A stretch of 8,718 nucleotides of DNA from the IMG/VR virus record IMGVR_UViG_2529292985_000034; one strand, written 5' to 3'. The notes under the pieces are model-generated. The model made no database searches and was not told the DNA's origin. It saw nothing but the letters and a program-made list of their open reading frames with translations. Made by a program: the position numbers and the translations under genes. Source of the DNA: a virus. Taxonomy: Duplodnaviria; Heunggongvirae; Uroviricota; Caudoviricetes. Shown in pieces: positions 1 to 8,718 of this stretch; within the stretch, counting starts at the first letter, position 1; every line of letters begins with the position of its first letter.

Positions 1-1218
1 ATGAACAAACTGAGCGATACCTTGCTAAGGAAACTTCATGGTAAGCCAGCGGAGAAAAACACGTTTTATAGTGATGGCGGAAACCTGAGCGTGAAATATT
101 TAACATCAGGGAAATTGACCTGGTATTTCACATACAGGGCCGGAACGGGAAGGGAGACACGACCCGAACGCATTAAGCTGGGAAGTTATCCTGATCTGAG
201 CCTGAAATCAGCCAGGGAAAAAGCCGCCCAGTGTCGCGCATGGCTGGCAGAGGGGAAAAATCCACGTCATGAGCTTAATTACACCGTACAGGAAGCGTTA
301 AAGCCGGTAACGGTTGGCGATGCGCTCACCTACTGGCTTGAGTATTACGTAAAGGAAAACCGCGTGGATTATATCGCCCTGAAAAGGCGACTTAATAATC
401 ACGTAATACAGCAGATTGGTGCTATGCCGCTGGATAAATGCGAGCTACGGCACTGGCTGGCCTGTTTTGACCAGGTGGCAAAGCGAACGCCTGTTACTGC
501 CGGATTCGTGCTACAGGCGTGCAAACAGGCGCTTAAGTTCTGCCGTAGGCGGCGCTATGCAATCAGCAACGTTCTGGACGATCTGAACGTGGCGGACGTT
601 GGGAAAAAACCGGATATAAGCGAACGTGTCTTAAGTAACAAAGAACTTGGCGAATTATTGCAGGCACTGGACAAAAAAATATTCTCCCCTTACTACGTCG
701 CGTTAATCCGCCTCCTGATTGTCTTCGGAGCCAGAACGGTAGAACTGAGGTTATCGGAGATCGGGGAGTGGGATTTTACGGAAATGCTATGGACCGTTCC
801 GAAGGAGCACAGCAAAACGAAGGTCGCAATATTCCGGCCCATACCGGAAGCGATCCTGCCGTTCGTCACGCAGCTGGTGGAGCAGAACAGGCACACGGGC
901 TTATTGCTGGGGGAAGTGAAACAGGAGGCCAGCGTATCGCAGTATGGAAGATTAGCGCACAGGAGGCTTAATCATCCTCACTGGTCACTGCATGACATCC
1001 GGCGCACCTTTACAACCATGCTGAACGATTTAGGCGTTGATCCGCATGTCGTGGAGCAGCTTACAGGCCACCAGATGCCAGGAATGCAGCGAGTTTATAA
1101 TCATTCCCGTTATCTGGATGCTAAACGCAATGCGCTGGATATGTGGACGGAGCGGTTAGGGATACTGGCGGGAACACATGAAAACGTAACCACGCTACCA
1201 GTAGCCAGAAGAAAATAA
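1..1218 (+). CDS. int: P4-family tyrosine recombinase / integrase (405 aa)
   Basis: Full ORF from ATG at 1 to TAA at 1216-1218. N-terminal region (YSDGGNLSVKY...TWYFTYR) resembles the arm-binding domain of P4-type integrases. C-terminal catalytic signature residues are visible: ARTVELR (box I Arg), HSKTK (Lys), HDIRRTF (His-x-x-Arg), VYNHSRYL (Tyr). Confidence 0.9.
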   Translation: MNKLSDTLLRKLHGKPAEKNTFYSDGGNLSVKYLTSGKLTWYFTYRAGTGRETRPERIKLGSYPDLSLKSAREKAAQCRAWLAEGKNPRHELNYTVQEALKPVTVGDALTYWLEYYVKENRVDYIALKRRLNNHVIQQIGAMPLDKCELRHWLACFDQVAKRTPVTAGFVLQACKQALKFCRRRRYAISNVLDDLNVADVGKKPDISERVLSNKELGELLQALDKKIFSPYYVALIRLLIVFGARTVELRLSEIGEWDFTEMLWTVPKEHSKTKVAIFRPIPEAILPFVTQLVEQNRHTGLLLGEVKQEASVSQYGRLAHRRLNHPHWSLHDIRRTFTTMLNDLGVDPHVVEQLTGHQMPGMQRVYNHSRYLDAKRNALDMWTERLGILAGTHENVTTLPVARRK

Positions 1219-1584: not shown

Positions 1585-1773
1585 GTGTTAAGCACTGATC
1601 GGTTTATACGTGAAAAAGAATGCGAAAAACTAACCGGCCTTAGCCGTACGTGTCGCTACCGCCTGGAAAAGGCCGGACAATTCCCATCACGTCGTAAACT
1701 TGGCGGTCGTTCCGTTGGCTGGTCTTTATCCGAGGTTCTGGCCTGGAAGGATAGCTGCAAGGCAGTTCATTAA
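1585..1773 (+). CDS. alpA: AlpA/Vis-family phage transcriptional regulator (excisionase-like, 62 aa)
   Basis: GTG start at 1585 preceded by a G7 Shine-Dalgarno tract (1573-1579). Sequence DRFIREKECEKLTGLSRTCRYRLEKAGQFP matches the AlpA/Vis helix-turn-helix signature (ELTGLSRSTIYRL...G.FP). Position just downstream of a P4-type int is typical. Confidence 0.8.
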   Translation: MLSTDRFIREKECEKLTGLSRTCRYRLEKAGQFPSRRKLGGRSVGWSLSEVLAWKDSCKAVH

Positions 1774-1917
1774 TCACGCTGGCGGCACGCAGCCGCCACA
1801 CATCAATCATCTGAACACAGAGCTATAACCATGAAGATTGAATATACGCCAGAACGTGGGCGGGGATTCGTTCGCCCTGGTGAAACTGAAAAACAACAAA
1901 ATTGGGGTTTTTCAGGT

Positions 1918-1953
1918 ATAAAAAAAGCGGCCCCGAAATGGAGCCGCCTTTCT
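1918..1953 (-). terminator. Rho-independent terminator (minus-strand orientation; possibly bidirectional)
   Basis: Stem GCGGCCCC (1927-1934) / GGAGCCGC (1940-1947), 7 of 8 pairs, 5-nt loop. On the minus strand it is followed by a U-run (plus-strand A-run 1918-1926). It lies between the convergent alpA and minus-strand small genes. Confidence 0.5.
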
Positions 1954-2042
1954 GAACAGATAACCCGCTGCGCCGTTTGTGTGTGTGATCCCAAACATAA
2001 GCACGGGGATGATAGCCGCTATCAGGCTGGTGGGCAATGCAA

Positions 2043-2216
2043 TCAGTCTGGTTCAGTTCGTTGCCATACCTGCAATGAGCGCTTTTCCCTGTACTCTTTA
2101 AGGAATTGCTCAAGGGCAAAAGCACATGGTGCGAATCTTTCTGATTCATGCTCTATCTTTCTGCGCCGTCTTTTCCGTGCCGGTGATAATGTTTTGGTCA
2201 ATTCTTTATCGGTCAT
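2043..2216 (-). CDS. Hypothetical small basic protein (57 aa; alternative start at 2231 gives 62 aa)
   Basis: Minus-strand ORF downstream of the RHH gene. The internal ATG at 2216-2214 has AGGA 7 nt upstream. Arg/Lys-rich N-terminus (ARKRRRRK). The minus-strand terminator about 90 nt downstream supports a two-gene transcript. No recognisable family. Confidence 0.35.
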   Translation of the reverse strand: MTDKELTKTLSPARKRRRRKIEHESERFAPCAFALEQFLKEYREKRSLQVWQRTEPD

Positions 2217-2273
2217 TGTGTTGTCCTGCATAGCAATGCGCCGTAATACCTCACACCACGGCGCTGATAGTGA

Positions 2274-2453
2274 TTATTCTGATTCTTTGGCCTTGCGGCG
2301 CTGGCGGCGTTTGATCTCGCCTTCAAGTGCCGAAACGATAAATTGCCCTGTACTTTCGCCATCTTCCTTTAAATTTTCTACAGCATCAGCTATTGCGTGT
2401 GGTACTCGAGCCTCAAGCTTTTTGGATTTTGCATTAACTGCTTTTGTTGCCAT
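2274..2453 (-). CDS. Ribbon-helix-helix (Arc/CopG-like) DNA-binding protein, 59 aa; candidate repressor
   Basis: ATG at 2453-2451 with GAGGA 8 nt upstream. KKLEARVPHAIADAVENL fits the RHH pattern: beta-strand with alternating polar residues, Pro, then helix A. C-terminal basic tail. Divergent from the operon promoter that carries the triple repeat. Confidence 0.6.
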   Translation of the reverse strand: MATKAVNAKSKKLEARVPHAIADAVENLKEDGESTGQFIVSALEGEIKRRQRRKAKESE

Positions 2454-2474
2454 ATCTGATTTCCTCGTTATTAG

Positions 2475-2555
2475 GTGGCTGACAGTATACACACAAGAAA
2501 ACGGAAAAACACTATTGACGTGGCTGACACCCGTTACTAATATAGTGGCTGACAC
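2475..2555. promoter_or_regulatory. Operator-like triple direct repeat GTGGCTGACA
   Basis: Exact 10-mer GTGGCTGACA at 2475-2484, 2520-2529 and 2546-2555. Copy 2 lies in the promoter spacer; copy 3 lies just downstream of the -10 element, over the likely start site. Each copy has outer GTG/CAC dyad symmetry. Confidence 0.5.
2515..2543 (+). promoter_or_regulatory. Sigma70-like promoter for the rightward operon
   Basis: TTGACG (2515-2520), 17-bp spacer, TAATAT (2538-2543). About 100 bp upstream of the first operon ORF. Confidence 0.45.
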
Positions 2556-2647
2556 CTTTATCAAGGTAATCGATGAAAAGACAAAGCCCCGCAAGTGTCG
2601 TTACCACTCGCAGGGCTTCTAACCAACAACGTAAACTAGGAGCCGTT

Positions 2648-2845
2648 ATGGTTGCTGTAAATCATATACCACACCTTGTACACACACAAACGGCCTTTGT
2701 GTGGCGTTTTCTGGCACTGAGTGCCGGAGAATCTCAAATCATCCACGTAACCGCCTGGACGGAACGCGAAGCGCGTAACCGTTGCCCGTCCGGTTGTGTT
2801 GCTGTATTTGCCGCCCGTATTCGTCAGGAGGTGCGCCATGATTAA
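2648..2845 (+). CDS. Hypothetical protein, 65 aa (first gene of early operon)
   Basis: ATG at 2648 with GGAG 5 nt upstream (2639-2642). Stop overlaps the start of the next ORF. The longer 2573 start of the tracked ORF has no RBS and runs through the promoter. Confidence 0.55.
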   Translation: MVAVNHIPHLVHTQTAFVWRFLALSAGESQIIHVTAWTEREARNRCPSGCVAVFAARIRQEVRHD

Positions 2846-3050
2846 TCTGTCACTTACTGACCTTAACCGCATTCAGTTTCGTGAGAAATTCACAGGGCAG
2901 CTACTGGTCAATGTGGATAAAGGTCGCGTGGTGTGTAATTACCACTTACCAGATGAAGCAATTGTCGCCACAAGGGAATCATTACAGGAAATCACAAAAC
3001 GTGCCGGAATGATTAACACGAATATTCAGGGGATGCTTTATGCACAATAA
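2838..3050 (+). CDS. Hypothetical protein, 70 aa
   Basis: ATG at 2838 with AGGAGG 6 nt upstream (2826-2831). Overlaps the preceding stop by 8 nt and the next start by 11 nt (translational coupling). Confidence 0.6.
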   Translation: MINLSLTDLNRIQFREKFTGQLLVNVDKGRVVCNYHLPDEAIVATRESLQEITKRAGMINTNIQGMLYAQ

Positions 3051-3279
3051 AACCACACCGGACGCAGCCGCCGAAGCCATCAAAACGCTGATGCACGCGC
3101 TGATTGATATTTCTGTTATCGCGGACAGGGCACATAAGCACGCCACCAGCGAAACAGAATATGCCGGTGCTTTCGTTCCTCACTCACTGGCTGTCATGCA
3201 ATTTAGTGCTGATACGGCGCTGAATGAGGCCAAAGCTATCCTGATTGCTGATTGTGAAAATGGGGGGGGTTATGCGTGA
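3040..3279 (+). CDS. Hypothetical protein, 79 aa
   Basis: ATG at 3040 with AGGGGA upstream. The C-terminus (ENGGGYA) is encoded across a G8 homopolymer. Its stop overlaps the next start (ATGCGTGA). Confidence 0.6.
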   Translation: MHNKTTPDAAAEAIKTLMHALIDISVIADRAHKHATSETEYAGAFVPHSLAVMQFSADTALNEAKAILIADCENGGGYA

Positions 3280-3505
3280 TGATCGTTTTAATTCCCTGAA
3301 ACAGGAATTTTCCGGCGTTCCTGATGATGCGGCTGATGCGCTTTCGTCAATGCCAGAACTTATTAGAGCGGCTTTTTTCTTACTTTCCACGAGAGAATAT
3401 AAATCAACGGGGCTTGATGTACTGAATATCGCCGCCGATTATGCGGAATATGTGGCAGAGGCGCGTTATAGAAGAAAATTTCCTGAGGATGTAAGCCATG
3501 CGTGA
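3272..3505 (+). CDS. Hypothetical protein, 77 aa
   Basis: ATG at 3272 immediately after the G8 tract, which acts as RBS. ATGCGTGA overlap with the upstream stop. The same junction geometry recurs at 3498. Confidence 0.6.
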   Translation: MRDDRFNSLKQEFSGVPDDAADALSSMPELIRAAFFLLSTREYKSTGLDVLNIAADYAEYVAEARYRRKFPEDVSHA

Positions 3506-3731
3506 TATTTACCACCAAACAATAGACCGCGCATTTCTTGCACTTTCTCACAGTGAAAACATGATGGAAATATTGCGCATATGGCTTGAAACACTTGGCG
3601 ACAATGAACGCGACAAACAAAAATCAAGAATTGCCACAGCATTAATAACGCTTCTTGAGCCTGTAATAATGGAACTGCAAGAAATAGATCTATTGCACGA
3701 CAGATATAAAGAACAGCACACCGGAGAATAA
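3498..3731 (+). CDS. Hypothetical protein, 77 aa
   Basis: ATG at 3498 with GAGGA 9 nt upstream. ATGCGTGA overlap with the upstream stop. Predicted largely helical, acidic. Confidence 0.6.
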   Translation: MRDIYHQTIDRAFLALSHSENMMEILRIWLETLGDNERDKQKSRIATALITLLEPVIMELQEIDLLHDRYKEQHTGE

Positions 3732-3736
3732 AAATA

Positions 3737-4036
3737 ATGAAACTTAAATATTCTGGCTTAACTGCCAGTGGCAACACTCACCCTAAATTTACGCGCGGTG
3801 ATATTTACCGCGACCAGTACGGCGGCACGGTAATGATTAAGGACGTGGAAGAACGGCGCGTAACCTACCGCCGTGAAGGTTACGAATATGATTGCGTGAT
3901 GCCTGTTTATCAGTTCCGGCGTGATTTTTCTCTGGTACAGACCGCGCCGCATAACGTGCCCACCAGCAACGCCAGGGCACGGGCAAACATCCAGAAGCTG
4001 AAAACCATGGTTAACGGATTCAGGGGCAAGAAATGA
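3737..4036 (+). CDS. Hypothetical protein, 99 aa
   Basis: ATG at 3737 with GGAGA 10 nt upstream. Stop overlaps the start of the replication gene (ATGA at 4033-4036). Basic, Tyr/Arg-rich. Confidence 0.65.
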   Translation: MKLKYSGLTASGNTHPKFTRGDIYRDQYGGTVMIKDVEERRVTYRREGYEYDCVMPVYQFRRDFSLVQTAPHNVPTSNARARANIQKLKTMVNGFRGKK

Positions 4037-5433
4037 AAAGCGCACCGAACTTAAAAAAACAGCCTTACGACAAGATGACCGAAGTCATTATTTTTGCGGG
4101 TAGTGATGCCTGGGCACATGCGAAACAGTGGCAGGAACAGGACGGGCGACTGGCTGGCGATAATGTGCCTCCCGTTGTGCTGGCTGATGATCAACTGGAT
4201 GAACTGGCAGACCTGAGAATCATCGACGAGGGGCGCTATTGTGTCCGGCTGTACAAGGCAGGCCACATCAGGCCATCAAATATTAATGCCATTGCGCACA
4301 AGCTGGCGGCGGCGGGTGTAACTGATGCGAATTATTACCCCGAAGGGATGCACAGCCATATGCGGGAGAACTGGCGCGAATACCTGGAACGGGTGCGCGG
4401 GAAAGAGCCGGCGGAAGAAAAAAACCACCAGCGAAAAACCACGCTACCGATGAGCGTTGGATCTACCGGATACGACACGCAACTGGATTACGTGGTTAAG
4501 GGGATTATTCCGGCGGTATCGCTATGCAGCATATACGGGGCTAGCGGGTCCTATAAATCATTCCTTGCCGGATCGTGGGCGTGCCATGTTGCCACTGGTC
4601 GCCAGTGGGGAGGCCGCAGGGTTGCACATGGTGCGGTTCTCTATGTGGTTGGTGAAGGCGGTATAGGTGTTCCGCGTCGTGTAAAAGCCTGGGAGGTTGT
4701 GCACGATGAGCAGGTGAAAAATCTGTATCTGGTAAACCGCCCCATCTTTCCGGCTGCCCCGCTTGATGTTGATGAAATGGTTATCGCTGCCCGTCAGGTG
4801 GAGCGGGAAACGGGTAAACCTGTACGCATGATTATTCTGGATACGCTGGCGCGTTGCTTTGGTGGGAATGATGAAAATGATTCCCGTGATATGGGGGCGT
4901 TTATCCGTGGTTGTGACGAACTGAAACGACGCACAGGGGCCACGGTGCTGGTGGTTCACCATTCCGGCAAGGATGAGACGAAAGGCGCGCGCGGTTCCAG
5001 TGCATTTCGTGCTTCGCTGGATGCTGAATACCGGATACGCAGGGAGGACGCAGGAAGCGAAGCGCTGGTTATCTCATGCACCAAAATGAAGGACGCGGAG
5101 GAACTCAAAGAAGCCGCATATGACTTACGCGTGGTGGAGCTTTTTACCGACGCTGACGGTGAATTAATCACGTCGCTGGTGGTGGTGGATGATCCGCGCC
5201 CTCCTGTTGAACTGGAGCGCATCGAGGAGGCAGGGAACAAGACGGAAAACCATACCGCGCTATGGGGGTGCATCCGTTCACGCACACAGAACGGCGACAA
5301 GTGCACGATCCCGCTGTTACGTGATGACATGAAAAAGCTGGGGTATGAAATGAAAAACTTCCGGCGCTGGCTGTACAAGCTGGAAAAAGATGGGGTTATT
5401 CGTATCGATGGGGATGATGTAGCGCCGCTATAA
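4033..5433 (+). CDS. Replication protein: toprim-like N-terminal domain + RecA-like/RepA-type P-loop ATPase (primase/helicase of the island), 466 aa
   Basis: Walker A GASGSYKS, Walker B-like VRMIILDT, and an N-terminal acidic toprim-like segment (VIIFAGSDA ... LADDQLDE). Last gene of the coupled operon; iteron array immediately downstream. Confidence 0.85.
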   Translation: MKSAPNLKKQPYDKMTEVIIFAGSDAWAHAKQWQEQDGRLAGDNVPPVVLADDQLDELADLRIIDEGRYCVRLYKAGHIRPSNINAIAHKLAAAGVTDANYYPEGMHSHMRENWREYLERVRGKEPAEEKNHQRKTTLPMSVGSTGYDTQLDYVVKGIIPAVSLCSIYGASGSYKSFLAGSWACHVATGRQWGGRRVAHGAVLYVVGEGGIGVPRRVKAWEVVHDEQVKNLYLVNRPIFPAAPLDVDEMVIAARQVERETGKPVRMIILDTLARCFGGNDENDSRDMGAFIRGCDELKRRTGATVLVVHHSGKDETKGARGSSAFRASLDAEYRIRREDAGSEALVISCTKMKDAEELKEAAYDLRVVELFTDADGELITSLVVVDDPRPPVELERIEEAGNKTENHTALWGCIRSRTQNGDKCTIPLLRDDMKKLGYEMKNFRRWLYKLEKDGVIRIDGDDVAPL

Positions 5434-5624
5434 AAGTGAGGAGCAAAAGCGAGGGGGATAGAAAGAGGGCCAAAATTAGCCCGCTCTCCCTCACTTTTCG
5501 ACCTGTATACATCCTCAAAAGTGAGGGGTAAAAAAATACTTATGAAACACACACATAGAAAAACCGAAAATCCCAACTGCGACGAAGTGAGACGCTTGAA
5601 AAAGTGAGGCGAAAAAGTGAGAGG
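5432..5624. repeat. Iteron array (AAAGTGAGG family) with A-rich spacer; putative island replication origin
   Basis: Copies at 5432-5441, 5517-5528, 5584-5592, 5599-5610, 5612-5624; variants at 5445-5457 and 5461-5469; an inverted copy at 5489-5498. The inverted copy forms a perfect 10-bp inverted repeat with the 5517-5526 copy. An A-rich stretch lies at 5529-5575. Confidence 0.55.
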
Positions 5625-5633
5625 TTGCGAGAA

Positions 5634-5785
5634 ATGACCCAAAAACGCAGAGACAGAACAGAGCCAAAATATAAAGCGTTAGACATGACTGAGCACACCT
5701 TAAAGGTGGCAATCAGAACGATAGACCGCCACACGCGGGAAGGATACGCGAAGGAACATCCCGACCTGATAAGCGCATTCATGAC
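5634..5785 (+). pseudogene. Small island ORF whose 3' end is replaced by the IS600 terminus (doubtful gene)
   Basis: ORF beginning MTQKRRDR... runs in frame into the IS left inverted repeat, where it meets a TGA belonging to the IS. It overlaps the iteron region, so coding status is uncertain. Confidence 0.25.
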
Positions 5786-5849
5786 TGAGGTAGCCTGAGT
5801 TTAACGGACACTCCTTCCTGAAATAGAATGGCATCAGAAGGAGCTAATA

Positions 5850-6152
5850 ATGAGCAGAAAAAACCAACGTTACTCTAAAGAGTTCAAAGCCGAAGCTGTC
5901 AGAACGGTTCTTGAAAATCAACTTTCGATCAGTGAAGGCGCTTCCCGATTATCCCTTCCTGAAGGCACTTTAGGACAATGGGTTACCGCCGCCAGAAAAG
6001 GGCTCGGTACTCCTGGTTCCCGCACGGTGGCTGAACTGGAATCTGAAATTCTGCAACTGCGTAAGGCGTTAAATGAAGCTCGCCTTGAGCGAGATATATT
6101 AAAAAAAGCAACAGCGTATTTTGCACAGGAGTCGCTGAAAAATACGCGTTAA
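5850..6152 (+). CDS. IS3-family transposase OrfA (HTH, leucine zipper), 100 aa
   Basis: MSRKNQRYSKEFKAEAVR... is typical of IS3-family OrfA. Slippery A7 run at 6101-6107 near its 3' end. Confidence 0.9.
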   Translation: MSRKNQRYSKEFKAEAVRTVLENQLSISEGASRLSLPEGTLGQWVTAARKGLGTPGSRTVAELESEILQLRKALNEARLERDILKKATAYFAQESLKNTR

Positions 6153-6187
6153 TCGAACAATGGCGACAACAATTTCCCATTGAAGCG

Positions 6188-7006
6188 ATGTGTCAGGTAT
6201 TTGGTGTATCCAGGAGCGGTTATTACAACTGGGTACAGCATGAACCCTCAGACAGAAAACAAAGTGATGAGCGGCTAAAACTGGAGATTAAGGTGGCACA
6301 TATCCGCACTCGCGAAACATATGGAACCCGGCGGCTCCAGACGGAGCTGGCAGAGAATGGCATCATCGTTGGTCGTGACCGACTGGCACGTCTTCGTAAG
6401 GAGCTAAGGCTACGCTGTAAGCAGAAACGCAAGTTCAGAGCGACTACGAACCCGAACCACAATCTGCCAGTTGCGCCAAATCTGCTGAACCAGACGTTCG
6501 CTCCTACAGCACCAAATCAGGTCTGGGTGGCGGACCTGACGTATGTTGCCACACAGGAGGGATGGTTGTACCTCGCTGGCATCAAAGATGTTTATACGTG
6601 CGAAATTGTCGGCTACGCCATGGGAGAGCGCATGACAAAAGAGCTGACAGGTAAAGCCCTGTTTATGGCGCTCAGGAGCCAGCGCCCACCTGCCGGGCTA
6701 ATCCACCACTCTGATCGAGGTTCACAGTACTGCGCATACGATTACCGGGTCATACAGGAGCAGTCTGGTCTGAAAACATCAATGTCGCGTAAAGGTCACT
6801 GTTACGACAACGCTCCGATGGAAAGCTTCTGGGGAACGCTGAAAAATGAGAGCCTGAGCCACTATCGTTTTAATAACCGGGATGAAGCCATCTCAGTAAT
6901 ACGGGAATACATTGAGATTTTCTACAATCGTCAGCGTCGTCACTCTCGTCTGGGGAATATCTCCCCGGCAGCCTTCAGGGAAAAATATCATCAGATGGCT
7001 GCTTAA
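6188..7006 (+). CDS. IS3-family transposase OrfB (DDE catalytic domain), 272 aa; expressed as OrfAB fusion by -1 frameshift
   Basis: DDE motif residues in WVADLTYV, HHSDRGSQY and YDNAPMESFWGTLK. The orfB frame is -1 relative to orfA and is open upstream back to the A7 slippery site. Confidence 0.9.
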   Translation: MCQVFGVSRSGYYNWVQHEPSDRKQSDERLKLEIKVAHIRTRETYGTRRLQTELAENGIIVGRDRLARLRKELRLRCKQKRKFRATTNPNHNLPVAPNLLNQTFAPTAPNQVWVADLTYVATQEGWLYLAGIKDVYTCEIVGYAMGERMTKELTGKALFMALRSQRPPAGLIHHSDRGSQYCAYDYRVIQEQSGLKTSMSRKGHCYDNAPMESFWGTLKNESLSHYRFNNRDEAISVIREYIEIFYNRQRRHSRLGNISPAAFREKYHQMAA

Positions 7007-7049
7007 AAAAAGAACAAATGGTAGTGTCCGCTATTGCCAGTACACCTCA

Positions 7050-7894
7050 GTTTACTGGTGGGCTACATCGCCTGGCTGGCGACCGCTTACCGGATGAGCT
7101 TTTCCCGCGAAATCAATCTGGGCCTGGCGCAACATGAGTTCGAATTGTTCTGTCAGCCTTTGCTTAATGCGCGCAGCCAGCAATGTATTGGTGTAGAGAT
7201 TTTGCTGCGCTGGAACAATCCGCGTCAGGGCCGGATTTCACCGGATGTGTTTATTCCTATCGCGGAAGAACATCATTTAATTGTGCCACTGACCCGCTAT
7301 GTGATGGCAGAAACCATTCGTCAGCGCCATGTTTTCCCGATGAGTAGTCAGTTTCATGTTGGCATTAACGTCGCACCCAGCCATTTTCGCCGTGGTGTGC
7401 TGATAAAAGATCTCAATCAGTACTGGTTTAGCGCTCACCCGATTCAGCAACTGATCCTCGAAATCACCGAACGCGATGCCTTACTGGATGTTGATTATCG
7501 GATTGCCCGCGAGCTACATCGTAAAAACGTCAAACTGGCGATTGATGACTTCGGCACCGGCAACAGTTCATTTTCCTGGCTTGAAACATTACGTCCTGAC
7601 GTGCTGAAAATTGATAAGTCATTTACCGCAGCTATAGGTTCTGACGCGGTTAACTCGACGGTGACCGATATCATCATCGCGCTGGGGCAAAGACTGAATA
7701 TTGAACTGGTGGCGGAGGGCGTGGAAACGCAAGAACAGGCGAAGTATTTGCGCCGTCATGGCGTGCATATTTTGCAAGGGTATTTGTACGCACAGCCGAT
7801 GCCGCTACGTGATTTTCCCAAATGGCTGGCGGGCAGCCAACCGCCGCCCGCCCGGCATAATGGACATATCACGCCCATTATGCCGTTACGTTAA
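7050..7894 (+). pseudogene. EAL-domain c-di-GMP phosphodiesterase gene, 5'-truncated by IS600
   Basis: EAL-domain motifs ELFCQP, DDFGTG, KIDKSF and VAEGVET. A transmembrane segment (LSLLVGYIAWLATAY) precedes the EAL domain. The reading frame is open right up to the IS end with no credible native start, consistent with a CSS-type membrane phosphodiesterase that has lost its N-terminal half. Confidence 0.8.
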
Positions 7895-7960
7895 CGCTGA
7901 TATGACTTTCCGTGTCAAACCGGAATCTCTAATTTTGACGATTTTCTTTTTAGGTTTAAT

Positions 7961-8145
7961 TCCCTGAGGGCGACGTAGCAGTAAATCCGACGGTGAATCA
8001 CGCTGATATTCGCGGGTTGGATACCGCATTACAGAGGTCCGTCATATGAGCCTGCCACTTTCTTACGTCGCGAATCAGCTTTGTTCCGCCGTCGCCAAGC
8101 GCTAACGTGGGTTACTCTTGTACCGGGCTACGTCGCCTTCAGGGA
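7961..8145. repeat. 185-bp structured palindromic element, closed by 19-bp inverted repeats
   Basis: TCCCTGAGGGCGACGTAGC (7961-7979) pairs with 8127-8145 at 18 of 19 positions. Internal inverted repeats include GCTGATATTCGCG (8002-8014) with CGCGAATCAGC (8069-8079) and GTAAATCCGACG with CGTGGGTTAC, on different centres. Lies 18 bp 3' of the IS110-family transposase stop. Confidence 0.5.
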
Positions 8146-8163
8146 ACTGGTTATTCTCATTTT

Positions 8164-8718
8164 TTATTTGTGACATTGTGGTTGTTGTGCGACAGACATT
8201 GCTATTCGGCCCATATCCCAGATAAAACCCGCCAGCTCACGTGCAACAGCAACAATTGTAATATTGACATTCTTTCCTTTGGCCTGAAGTTTTCGATACC
8301 TCTTACAAAGCCTGAGTTGAGCATCCCATGCTCTGTCAATGACGGGGCGGGGTAAATTTTCCTGCCTTTTTTGTATTGCCGGACTGATGCGTGCCGGATG
8401 ACGGTAACTCCACGCTGCCTCGACCAATAGCTTTCTGGCATAGCTGTTTCCGGCTTTGGTAATGCTGCCCTGATGTCTGCTTCCACCCGATGAATATTCT
8501 GATGGCGTGATACCAAACCATGACATCAGTTGTCGTGGATGTTCAAAACGGGTCAGATCACCCAGTTCAGAAATTAATCCAACCGCAGTAATAAACTGAA
8601 TCCCTCGCATGGCTTGCAGCGCCTCTACTACCGGATACAGCCTCCATTCGGTAACGGCCTCCTTCAGGGCGGATTCCAGCCGTTCACATTGTGCCTGCCG
8701 GTCTTCTATTGTACGACG
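8164..8718 (-). CDS. IS110-family transposase, C-terminal part (N-terminus beyond window end)
   Basis: Minus-strand frame is open from the window edge to the stop at 8166-8164. GIQFITAVGLISELGDLTRF...GSRHQGSITKAGNSYARKLL is characteristic of the IS110/IS116/IS902 transposase C-terminal domain. Confidence 0.8.
   Translation of the reverse strand, partial: RRTIEDRQAQCERLESALKEAVTEWRLYPVVEALQAMRGIQFITAVGLISELGDLTRFEHPRQLMSWFGITPSEYSSGGSRHQGSITKAGNSYARKLLVEAAWSYRHPARISPAIQKRQENLPRPVIDRAWDAQLRLCKRYRKLQAKGKNVNITIVAVARELAGFIWDMGRIAMSVAQQPQCHK

Follow-up and report, generated by a model that had tools for sequence, protein, structure and literature searches.

An IS600 copy without a target-site duplication joins a tqsA satellite island to pdeD in a draft contig of Shigella dysenteriae CDC 74-1112

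Insertion sequences of the IS3 family transpose by a copy-out/paste-in pathway through a circular intermediate. A simple insertion of the family member IS600 is a 1264-bp element with TG...CA ends, an orfA/orfB pair with an A7G run, an rve-type DDE domain and a 3-bp target-site duplication. The chromosome of S. flexneri 5b (8401) carries several IS-bounded inversions, including inversion 4, which is bounded by IS600, and an IS4-flanked re-inversion (PMC1550401). In a broader reconstruction, 103 of 114 inversions fell on Shigella branches and break points were reused (PMC8072062). On the Shigella virulence plasmid pINV, IS–IS recombination is described as driving plasmid deletions and integrations (PMC5629016). 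Element, mechanism and kind of outcome are therefore all well known in Shigella. The other relevant systems are the capsid-forming PICI-type satellites found in tqsA of E. coli, such as the island of E. coli 042, which carry int, AlpA, an Icd-like protein, a DUF4222 protein, a RepA helicase and iterons.

Here we describe an IS600 copy that lies between a tqsA island and the gene pdeD. The window, by which we mean the whole 8718-nt stretch of DNA analysed, equals the last 8718 nt of the 91,985-nt draft contig AERM01000172.1 with 0 mismatches; the assembly (GCA_000193895.2) is linked by protein names to Shigella dysenteriae CDC 74-1112. The copy has all the IS600 characters listed above except a matching duplication, and its two flanks appear to stem from two separate insertion events. 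With the published Shigella inversions the locus shares the reordering of large segments between IS copies and probably also an inversion followed by a second one that restores the orientation of a part, as well as break points reused across lineages. It differs in having a break point within a phage-satellite island, in involving three IS600 copies and in being read from two draft contigs rather than a finished chromosome. Homologous recombination between IS copies is likewise described for pINV, but here chromosomal segments were reordered. The island shares the gene set of the 042-type satellites; it differs in being split in two, apparently by the rearrangement, and in having lost its capsid genes earlier. 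The case reveals no new element or mechanism and is mainly a worked example, in which an old pdeD insertion, a recent island insertion and an exchange of flanks appear to be recoverable from public data. The features of the window are as follows.

1–1218, plus strand: P4-type tyrosine integrase (Pfam Arm-DNA-bind_3 and Phage_integrase), at the left end of the tqsA PICI-type island
1585–5433: small island genes and the RepA-type helicase, including AlpA, an Icd-like protein and a DUF4222 protein
4033–5433, plus strand: RepA-type helicase (Pfam AAA_25), the last intact island gene ahead of IS600
5433–5621, no strand: iteron-like repeat cluster with five copies of AAAGTGAG
5634–5798, plus strand: truncated 83-aa island ORF fused into IS600 (first 50 codons plus 2 nt; 54-aa product ending ...MTEVA)
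5783–5785, no strand: GAC, read as the left half of the 3-bp duplication that arose on insertion of IS600 into the island
5786–7049, plus strand: complete IS600 (IS3 family), 1264 bp, an apparently recombinant copy without a matching duplication
5850–6152, plus strand: IS600 orfA, 100 aa (HTH_Tnp_1, E = 1e-20)
6188–7006, plus strand: IS600 orfB, 272 aa (rve DDE catalytic domain, E = 2e-25)
7050–7052, no strand: GTT, read as the right half of the ancestral duplication at the pdeD site
7050–7894, plus strand: 3' part of pdeD/yoaD (nt 755–1599, 845 nt) with the entire EAL domain (Pfam EAL) and without the CSS-motif sensor half
about 7899–8718, minus strand: right-hand 820 nt of ISSso6 (IS110 family), which leaves the window and the contig

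The termini of the IS600 copy are TG...CA within imperfect terminal inverted repeats; their sequence is TGAGGTAGCC... at the left end (IRL) and, as the reverse complement, TGAGGTGTAC... at the right end (IRR). Members of the IS3 family are expected to have two overlapping ORFs, orfA (HTH) and orfB (DDE/rve), together with a run for -1 frameshifting. Both ORFs are intact here, as is the A7G slippery run in the orfA region (6101–6108), and NCBIfam transpos_IS3 scored 333 bits against a cut-off of 160. The name IS600 comes from E. coli copies annotated in RefSeq as 'IS3-like element IS600 family transposase', which the 150-nt end segments match at 97–99%. A first-pass annotation made from the sequence had called the element intact, with inverted repeats and both ORFs in place, and had noted that the bases flanking it differ. 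Both observations hold: re-examination of the exact ends gave no 3-bp repeat, since GAC on the left (5783–5785) and GTT on the right (7050–7052) agree at one of three bases. The end positions were confirmed independently by comparing empty and filled pdeD sites. Thus, the missing target-site duplication is real. Rfam gave no match anywhere in the window.

The pdeD portion to the right of IS600 shares 99.9% identity with pdeD of E. coli. Where the gene is intact, GTT occurs once and the sequence reads ...GCTGCTAAGTTTACTGG; a GTT-duplicated simple insertion, ...CTAAGTT/TGAGG...CCTCA/GTTTACTGG, was present in nine of ten related Shigella loci. Once four more loci were added, GTT–IS600–GTT in pdeD was counted in at least 13 related Shigella assemblies (loci L016–18, L020–26, L046, L048 and L074). 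The 3-bp duplication is thus absent in the window, whereas at least 13 relatives have it around the same copy, which argues for later recombination and not for a different element; an IS copy without its target-site duplication is in general a reliable marker of recombination after insertion. From its distribution, pdeD::IS600 is evidently an old insertion, common to many genomes labelled S. boydii, S. dysenteriae or S. flexneri. Downstream, ISSso6 sits between the convergent stop codons of pdeD and yoaE.

The left flank of the window is a PICI-type island integrated in tqsA, with int, AlpA, helicase and iterons. Upstream of the integrase, the source contig, Logan contig L003 and E. coli 042 all carry pntA–pntB–tqsA'. 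Together with its upstream flank the island is 99.6% identical to that of E. coli 042, at the same site and in the same orientation, and the 042 counterpart of the helicase is annotated as 'helicase RepA family protein'. Five AAAGTGAG repeats were seen against 0.25 expected by chance, and none of 200 shuffles attained five; by its repeat structure the cluster is likely the replication origin of the island. IS600 interrupts an 83-aa ORF that is whole in E. coli 042 and in CP026840.1. The resulting 54-aa island–IS600 fusion protein was found elsewhere in one dataset only, Logan SRR6760291, whose assembly contains an identical 8752 nt of pntB–tqsA'–island and then 25 nt from the start of IS600. 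The left junction between island and IS600 therefore exists in a second dataset. Contigs of some isolates labelled S. boydii also end at this island ORF.

CP026840.1, the closest complete genome, matches the left flank with 0 mismatches over 8752 nt, two homopolymer lengths differing, and matches IS600 and the right flank (5786–8718) with 1 SNP in 2933 nt; its pdeD::IS600 is identical to the window copy across all 1264 nt. In CP026840.1 the island runs in descending coordinates and its IS600 site is empty (CATGAC/CACGGTGG, at about 4,201,874), while pdeD, in ascending coordinates, holds a simple GTT–IS600–GTT insertion at 4,569,715–4,570,978. Because this genome has pdeD::IS600 and an empty island site, the pdeD insertion is taken as old and the island insertion as recent; the latter appears to be confined to the CDC 74-1112 sublineage. 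The first-pass annotation had regarded the two flanks as unrelated loci, which is borne out by their positions: they lie 368 kb apart and in opposite orientation in CP026840.1, and 235 kb apart in E. coli 14EC001, where the break points map to 2.155 Mb (pdeD, minus) and 2.391 Mb (island, plus) and the otsB–araH spacer to 2.0727 Mb, giving the order otsB–araH, pdeD, island.

Neither the window arrangement nor its right junction occurred in any of 5,426 complete E. coli genomes, and no reference genome among these has the two flanks naturally adjacent. BLAST searches of the 5,426 genomes with both reciprocal junctions as first predicted returned no spanning match, and no complete genome with the window arrangement was seen among the 17 long contigs inspected of 24. 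Exact-pattern scans of genome, viral and metagenome contigs for the left junction and the predicted reciprocal junctions were empty as well; these carry no weight, since the source genome lies outside those collections. Island and pdeD are thus adjacent in no genome searched, which is not what a simple insertion would give; they are apart in the unrearranged relatives CP026840.1 and E. coli 14EC001, where the earlier states are visible, as recombination between insertions would have it.

To find the partner copy, we worked out which ORF would run from the IS600 IRR into the distal island, assuming that GAC had been duplicated. The predicted product is MVVSAIASTPQ-TTVAANFATLTEREIAEAEQVTTINVKTGEVEL (44 aa; starting MVVSAIASTPQ-TTVAANF...). 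In a collection of about 15 billion proteins this exact sequence has a single match, EFW52389.1 (SDB_00139), which belongs to S. dysenteriae CDC 74-1112. The partner contig, AERM01000008.1, has the order cheA-motBA-flhCD-uspC-otsA-otsB...GGG–IS600–GACCACGGTGG...ssb-perC-...-ydgV-mdtJI-...-mlc. In this contig the second GAC copy adjoins the right end (IRR) of IS600, and the distal 6 kb of the island side are identical to CP026840.1. The other GAC half is therefore present in the genome, and so is the distal island. On its opposite side the partner copy borders the otsB–araH spacer and not the 5' part of pdeD, which implies that at least three IS600 copies exchanged flanks.

These results revise part of the first-pass annotation. 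It had reported the distal island as missing, which is correct for the window, but the segment is retained on AERM01000008.1, relocated and not lost. The reciprocal copy that it proposed to look for elsewhere in the genome is there, on another contig and with the GAC half and distal island, although it carries otsB in place of the expected pdeD 5' flank. Its proposal of a deletion or inversion between two IS copies is supported as regards recombination; its deletion option is excluded, and at least three copies (island, pdeD and otsB–araH) took part, not two. The host is indeed a Shigella, as its allusion to IS-driven decay in Shigella-like lineages implied, but 'decay' overstates what happened.

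Among the redistributed duplication halves, the GAC partner was located in the same genome, and the GTT and GGG partners were not found there. A fusion-ORF search for the third junction, in which pdeD 5' GTT would be followed by IS600 and GGG araH, gave no match, and a context search with the 254-aa PdeD N-terminal protein returned simple insertions and an arrangement of the S. boydii Sb227 type only. None of the four accessions listed for this 254-aa protein belonged to CDC 74-1112. Exact look-ups of PdeD-N+LR in three variants predicted from E. coli alleles had no match; the Shigella allele has a P-to-Q change.

The best explanation, to which we assign a probability of about 0.78, is a set of ordinary IS600 insertions followed by homologous recombination between the copies, so that the window copy, on the comparisons above, evidently arose by recombination and not by a simple insertion. 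The model builds on what is directly observed: the two sequenced junctions, the two GAC halves, the ancestral GTT/GTT pair in pdeD and an island site that is empty in CP026840.1. The third junction, the succession of events and a dependence on RecA are inferred. IS600 would have transposed three times with a 3-bp duplication each, into pdeD (GTT), into the tqsA island just past its origin region (GAC) and into the otsB–araH spacer (GGG). Host homologous recombination across the 1.26-kb repeats would then have swapped the flanks. The window copy now has the left part of the island next to IRL and pdeD 3' next to IRR, the second copy has otsB next to IRL and the distal island next to IRR, and a predicted third copy would join pdeD 5' to araH.

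To describe the resulting order, we named four segments: P, which ends on the island-distal side; Q, from island-left to pdeD 5'; S, from pdeD 3' to otsB; and R, which begins with araH. The two sequenced junctions place rc(S) between P and Q (P–rc(S) and rc(S)–Q), and the simplest closed genome would be P – rc(S) – Q – R. In terms of genes, the predicted succession is mdtJ, the distal island, otsB...yoaE–pdeD 3' (inverted), island-left...sdaA–pdeD 5' and araH. Block S, about 83 kb in E. coli, would have been inverted and moved into the island, and block Q, about 235 kb, would have kept its orientation. The original copies would have been oriented minus in the island and plus in pdeD and in the otsB–araH spacer, so two routes are possible. 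S may have been repositioned by two nested inversions between oppositely oriented copies, in either order, or it may have been excised between two direct copies and then reintegrated at the island copy. Since S carries argS, only cells that reintegrated S would survive under the second route. A single inversion of 224–368 kb between the island and pdeD copies, which would flip tus and TerB, had also been entertained and was dropped once the island-distal partner proved to be otsB.

Other readings of the junctions have to be weighed against this history. An IS600-mediated deletion, in which direct copies recombined and the distal island, the 5' half of pdeD and everything in between were lost, would account for the absence of both parts from the window, and such deletions are frequent in Shigella. 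It is nonetheless excluded. The distal island with its GAC half is intact on AERM01000008.1; the source contig extends 83 kb upstream of the window, and the stretches of it that were read hold tqsA', pntB and pntA of the block supposedly removed. Moreover, the loci are oppositely oriented in E. coli 14EC001 and CP026840.1, and the sides brought together by a deletion would be the wrong ones: an inversion-type exchange can make the window junction and a deletion cannot. Very unlikely, too, is a transposase-driven intramolecular event in which the IS600 in pdeD attacked the island replicatively and produced an inversion and a new inverted copy in one step. With no IS600 in the island of CP026840.1, one event starting from pdeD::IS600 would be the more parsimonious account, and its product would likewise show split GAC and GTT halves. 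However, it predicts the distal island joined to pdeD 5', and the actual neighbour is otsB, so extra recombination would be needed anyway; copy-out/paste-in by the IS3 family, furthermore, yields simple insertions and not replicative inversions.

The more serious competitor, though still an improbable one, is an assembly chimera: three ordinary insertions (GAC/GAC, GTT/GTT and GGG/GGG) whose flanks were misjoined across the 1.26-kb repeat by a draft assembler in 2011. The window lies at the end of a draft contig, which breaks off in ISSso6, and linkage across each IS600 depends on one 2011 draft (AERM01000172.1 and AERM01000008.1). That assembly holds two non-matching joins, which form the cyclic permutation of flanks that misjoining would give too, and the pdeD locus is unrearranged in CP026840.1. 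Short reads support single junctions only, and the six flank–IS junctions are the same for re-paired flanks and for three simple insertions. Literature searched under the strain name CDC 74-1112 held nothing regarding its assembly. On the other hand, AERM01000008.1 spans a 1.25-kb element of the IS3 family in otsA whose flanks match and show a 4-bp duplication, and the sister assembly AERO01000010.1 spans the pdeD IS600 in the arrangement of complete genomes, with copy-specific SNPs in mid-element that are shared with an independent assembly. The IS600 copies of AERM01000172.1 and AERM01000008.1 differ by two SNPs, at nt 913 and 1012, and so are not a pasted consensus. The joins, finally, agree with no reference genome, so reference-guided scaffolding would not make them.

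The pdeD locus is rearranged in another strain too. In S. boydii Sb227 the 5' half of pdeD is followed by IS600 and then by IS1 and IS66 elements, and the 3' half is preceded by a 5'-truncated IS600 beside another IS3-family element. By this arrangement Sb227 shows an independent rearrangement at the same pdeD IS600 copy. A tentative and rather doubtful extension would be that pdeD::IS600 is a recurrent recombination hotspot, with independent partners in Sb227 and CDC 74-1112, and that a second event in CDC 74-1112 restored the orientation of the terminus-adjacent, tus-containing block of about 235 kb. If so, this would point to selection against that block staying inverted, and CDC 74-1112 would be a natural strain with only the 83-kb pdeD3'–otsB block flipped and its satellite permanently split. 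The structural difference between CDC 74-1112 and the near-identical CP026840.1 is of relevance to reference-based mapping and to IS-based typing.

Being split, the satellite island of CDC 74-1112 would be unable to excise as a unit. The capsid genes carried by the islands of its E. coli relatives are absent from the distal part in this lineage. Protein look-ups with the helicase, the integrase and a 263-aa ORF led mostly to E. coli islands, and the 263-aa ORF to CP026840.1. Just beyond the break, the island has two alleles, CACGGCGG in E. coli 042 and CACGGTGG in the lineage of CDC 74-1112 and CP026840.1.

The IS600 entry point in the island lies 165 nt past a cluster of AAAGTGAG repeats, which occur five times versus an expectation of 0.25. 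The repeats look like an iteron-type origin of the island:

window 5433-5621: cluster of AAAGTGAG repeats (four in direct and one in inverted orientation) immediately after the helicase gene

In many draft assemblies of E. coli, the contig stops within codons 51-57 of the 83-aa island ORF that runs from window position 5634 onward, and the ORF is annotated there as partial. This pattern suggests a repeat or a module boundary of the satellites exactly where IS600 went in. Isolates labelled S. boydii have a 45-aa partial form of the same ORF, on contigs no longer than 17 kb; these isolates may be further members of the rearranged sublineage.

The IS600 copy in pdeD exists in other states among the relatives. 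In six related Shigella assemblies carrying a simple pdeD::IS600 insertion (L021, L024-L026, L046 and L048), one A is missing from the A7 frameshift run at IS600 nt 316 (window 6101) and OrfA is called as a 95-aa protein; these shortened copies are probably defective. The window IS600 retains the A7 run. In S. boydii Sb227 (L019/L068 and L082; CP000036.1), the IS600 at the pdeD 3′ part begins only at IS nt 122 and adjoins another IS3-family element together with a P4-type integrase. The pdeD 5′ part in Sb227 is joined to IS600, followed by IS1 and IS66 elements. The Sb227 lineage has therefore rearranged this copy independently.

The EAL fragment of pdeD carries a T-to-C change at window position 7232 that replaces the Trp encoded by three E. 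coli alleles of pdeD with Arg. The same replacement is present in the Shigella relatives, where an identical truncated product (P0052) is encoded, and is consistent with drift following pdeD inactivation. Beside the fragment lies a second insertion, common to all Shigella relatives examined and to one E. coli, FDAARGOS_944:

window 7899-8718: ISSso6 (IS110 family), sitting in the 3 nt that separate the stop codons of the convergent genes pdeD and yoaE

NCBIfam labels the window ISSso6 as an "IS110 family RNA-guided transposase". The ~265-nt ISSso6 end downstream of the CDS contains a 20-nt inverted repeat (7960-7979 and 8127-8146). An Rfam search of the window gave no match.

The island itself is degraded. 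The capsid and head-decoration genes that separate the 74-aa ORF from the 93-aa ORF in the island of E. coli 042 are absent from the islands of both the complete genome CP026840.1 (L059 15095-15633) and CDC 74-1112 (contig AERM01000008.1, L076 11176-11714). Satellite degradation predates the IS600 events. The tqsA remnant adjoining the island is a single 291-aa fragment in E. coli, whereas in the Shigella lineage (Logan contig L003 3275-4149; L059 7079-7952) it is broken further, into 34 and 252 aa or 34, 52 and 216 aa. The G run at window 3255-3262 is G8 in the window and in the Illumina-based Logan contig versus G7 in CP026840.1, and its length sets the reading of the ORF, either as two pieces (79 aa plus 77/81 aa) or as one fused frame (154 aa). 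A homopolymer error in the complete assembly may account for the difference.

The ots operon of CDC 74-1112 harbours two elements. One of them is an IS600 located ~80 nt upstream of otsB; the other interrupts otsA, and the trehalose synthesis operon of this strain is therefore inactivated:

L076 5785-7031: IS3-family element of ~1.25 kb within otsA, with a 4-bp duplication
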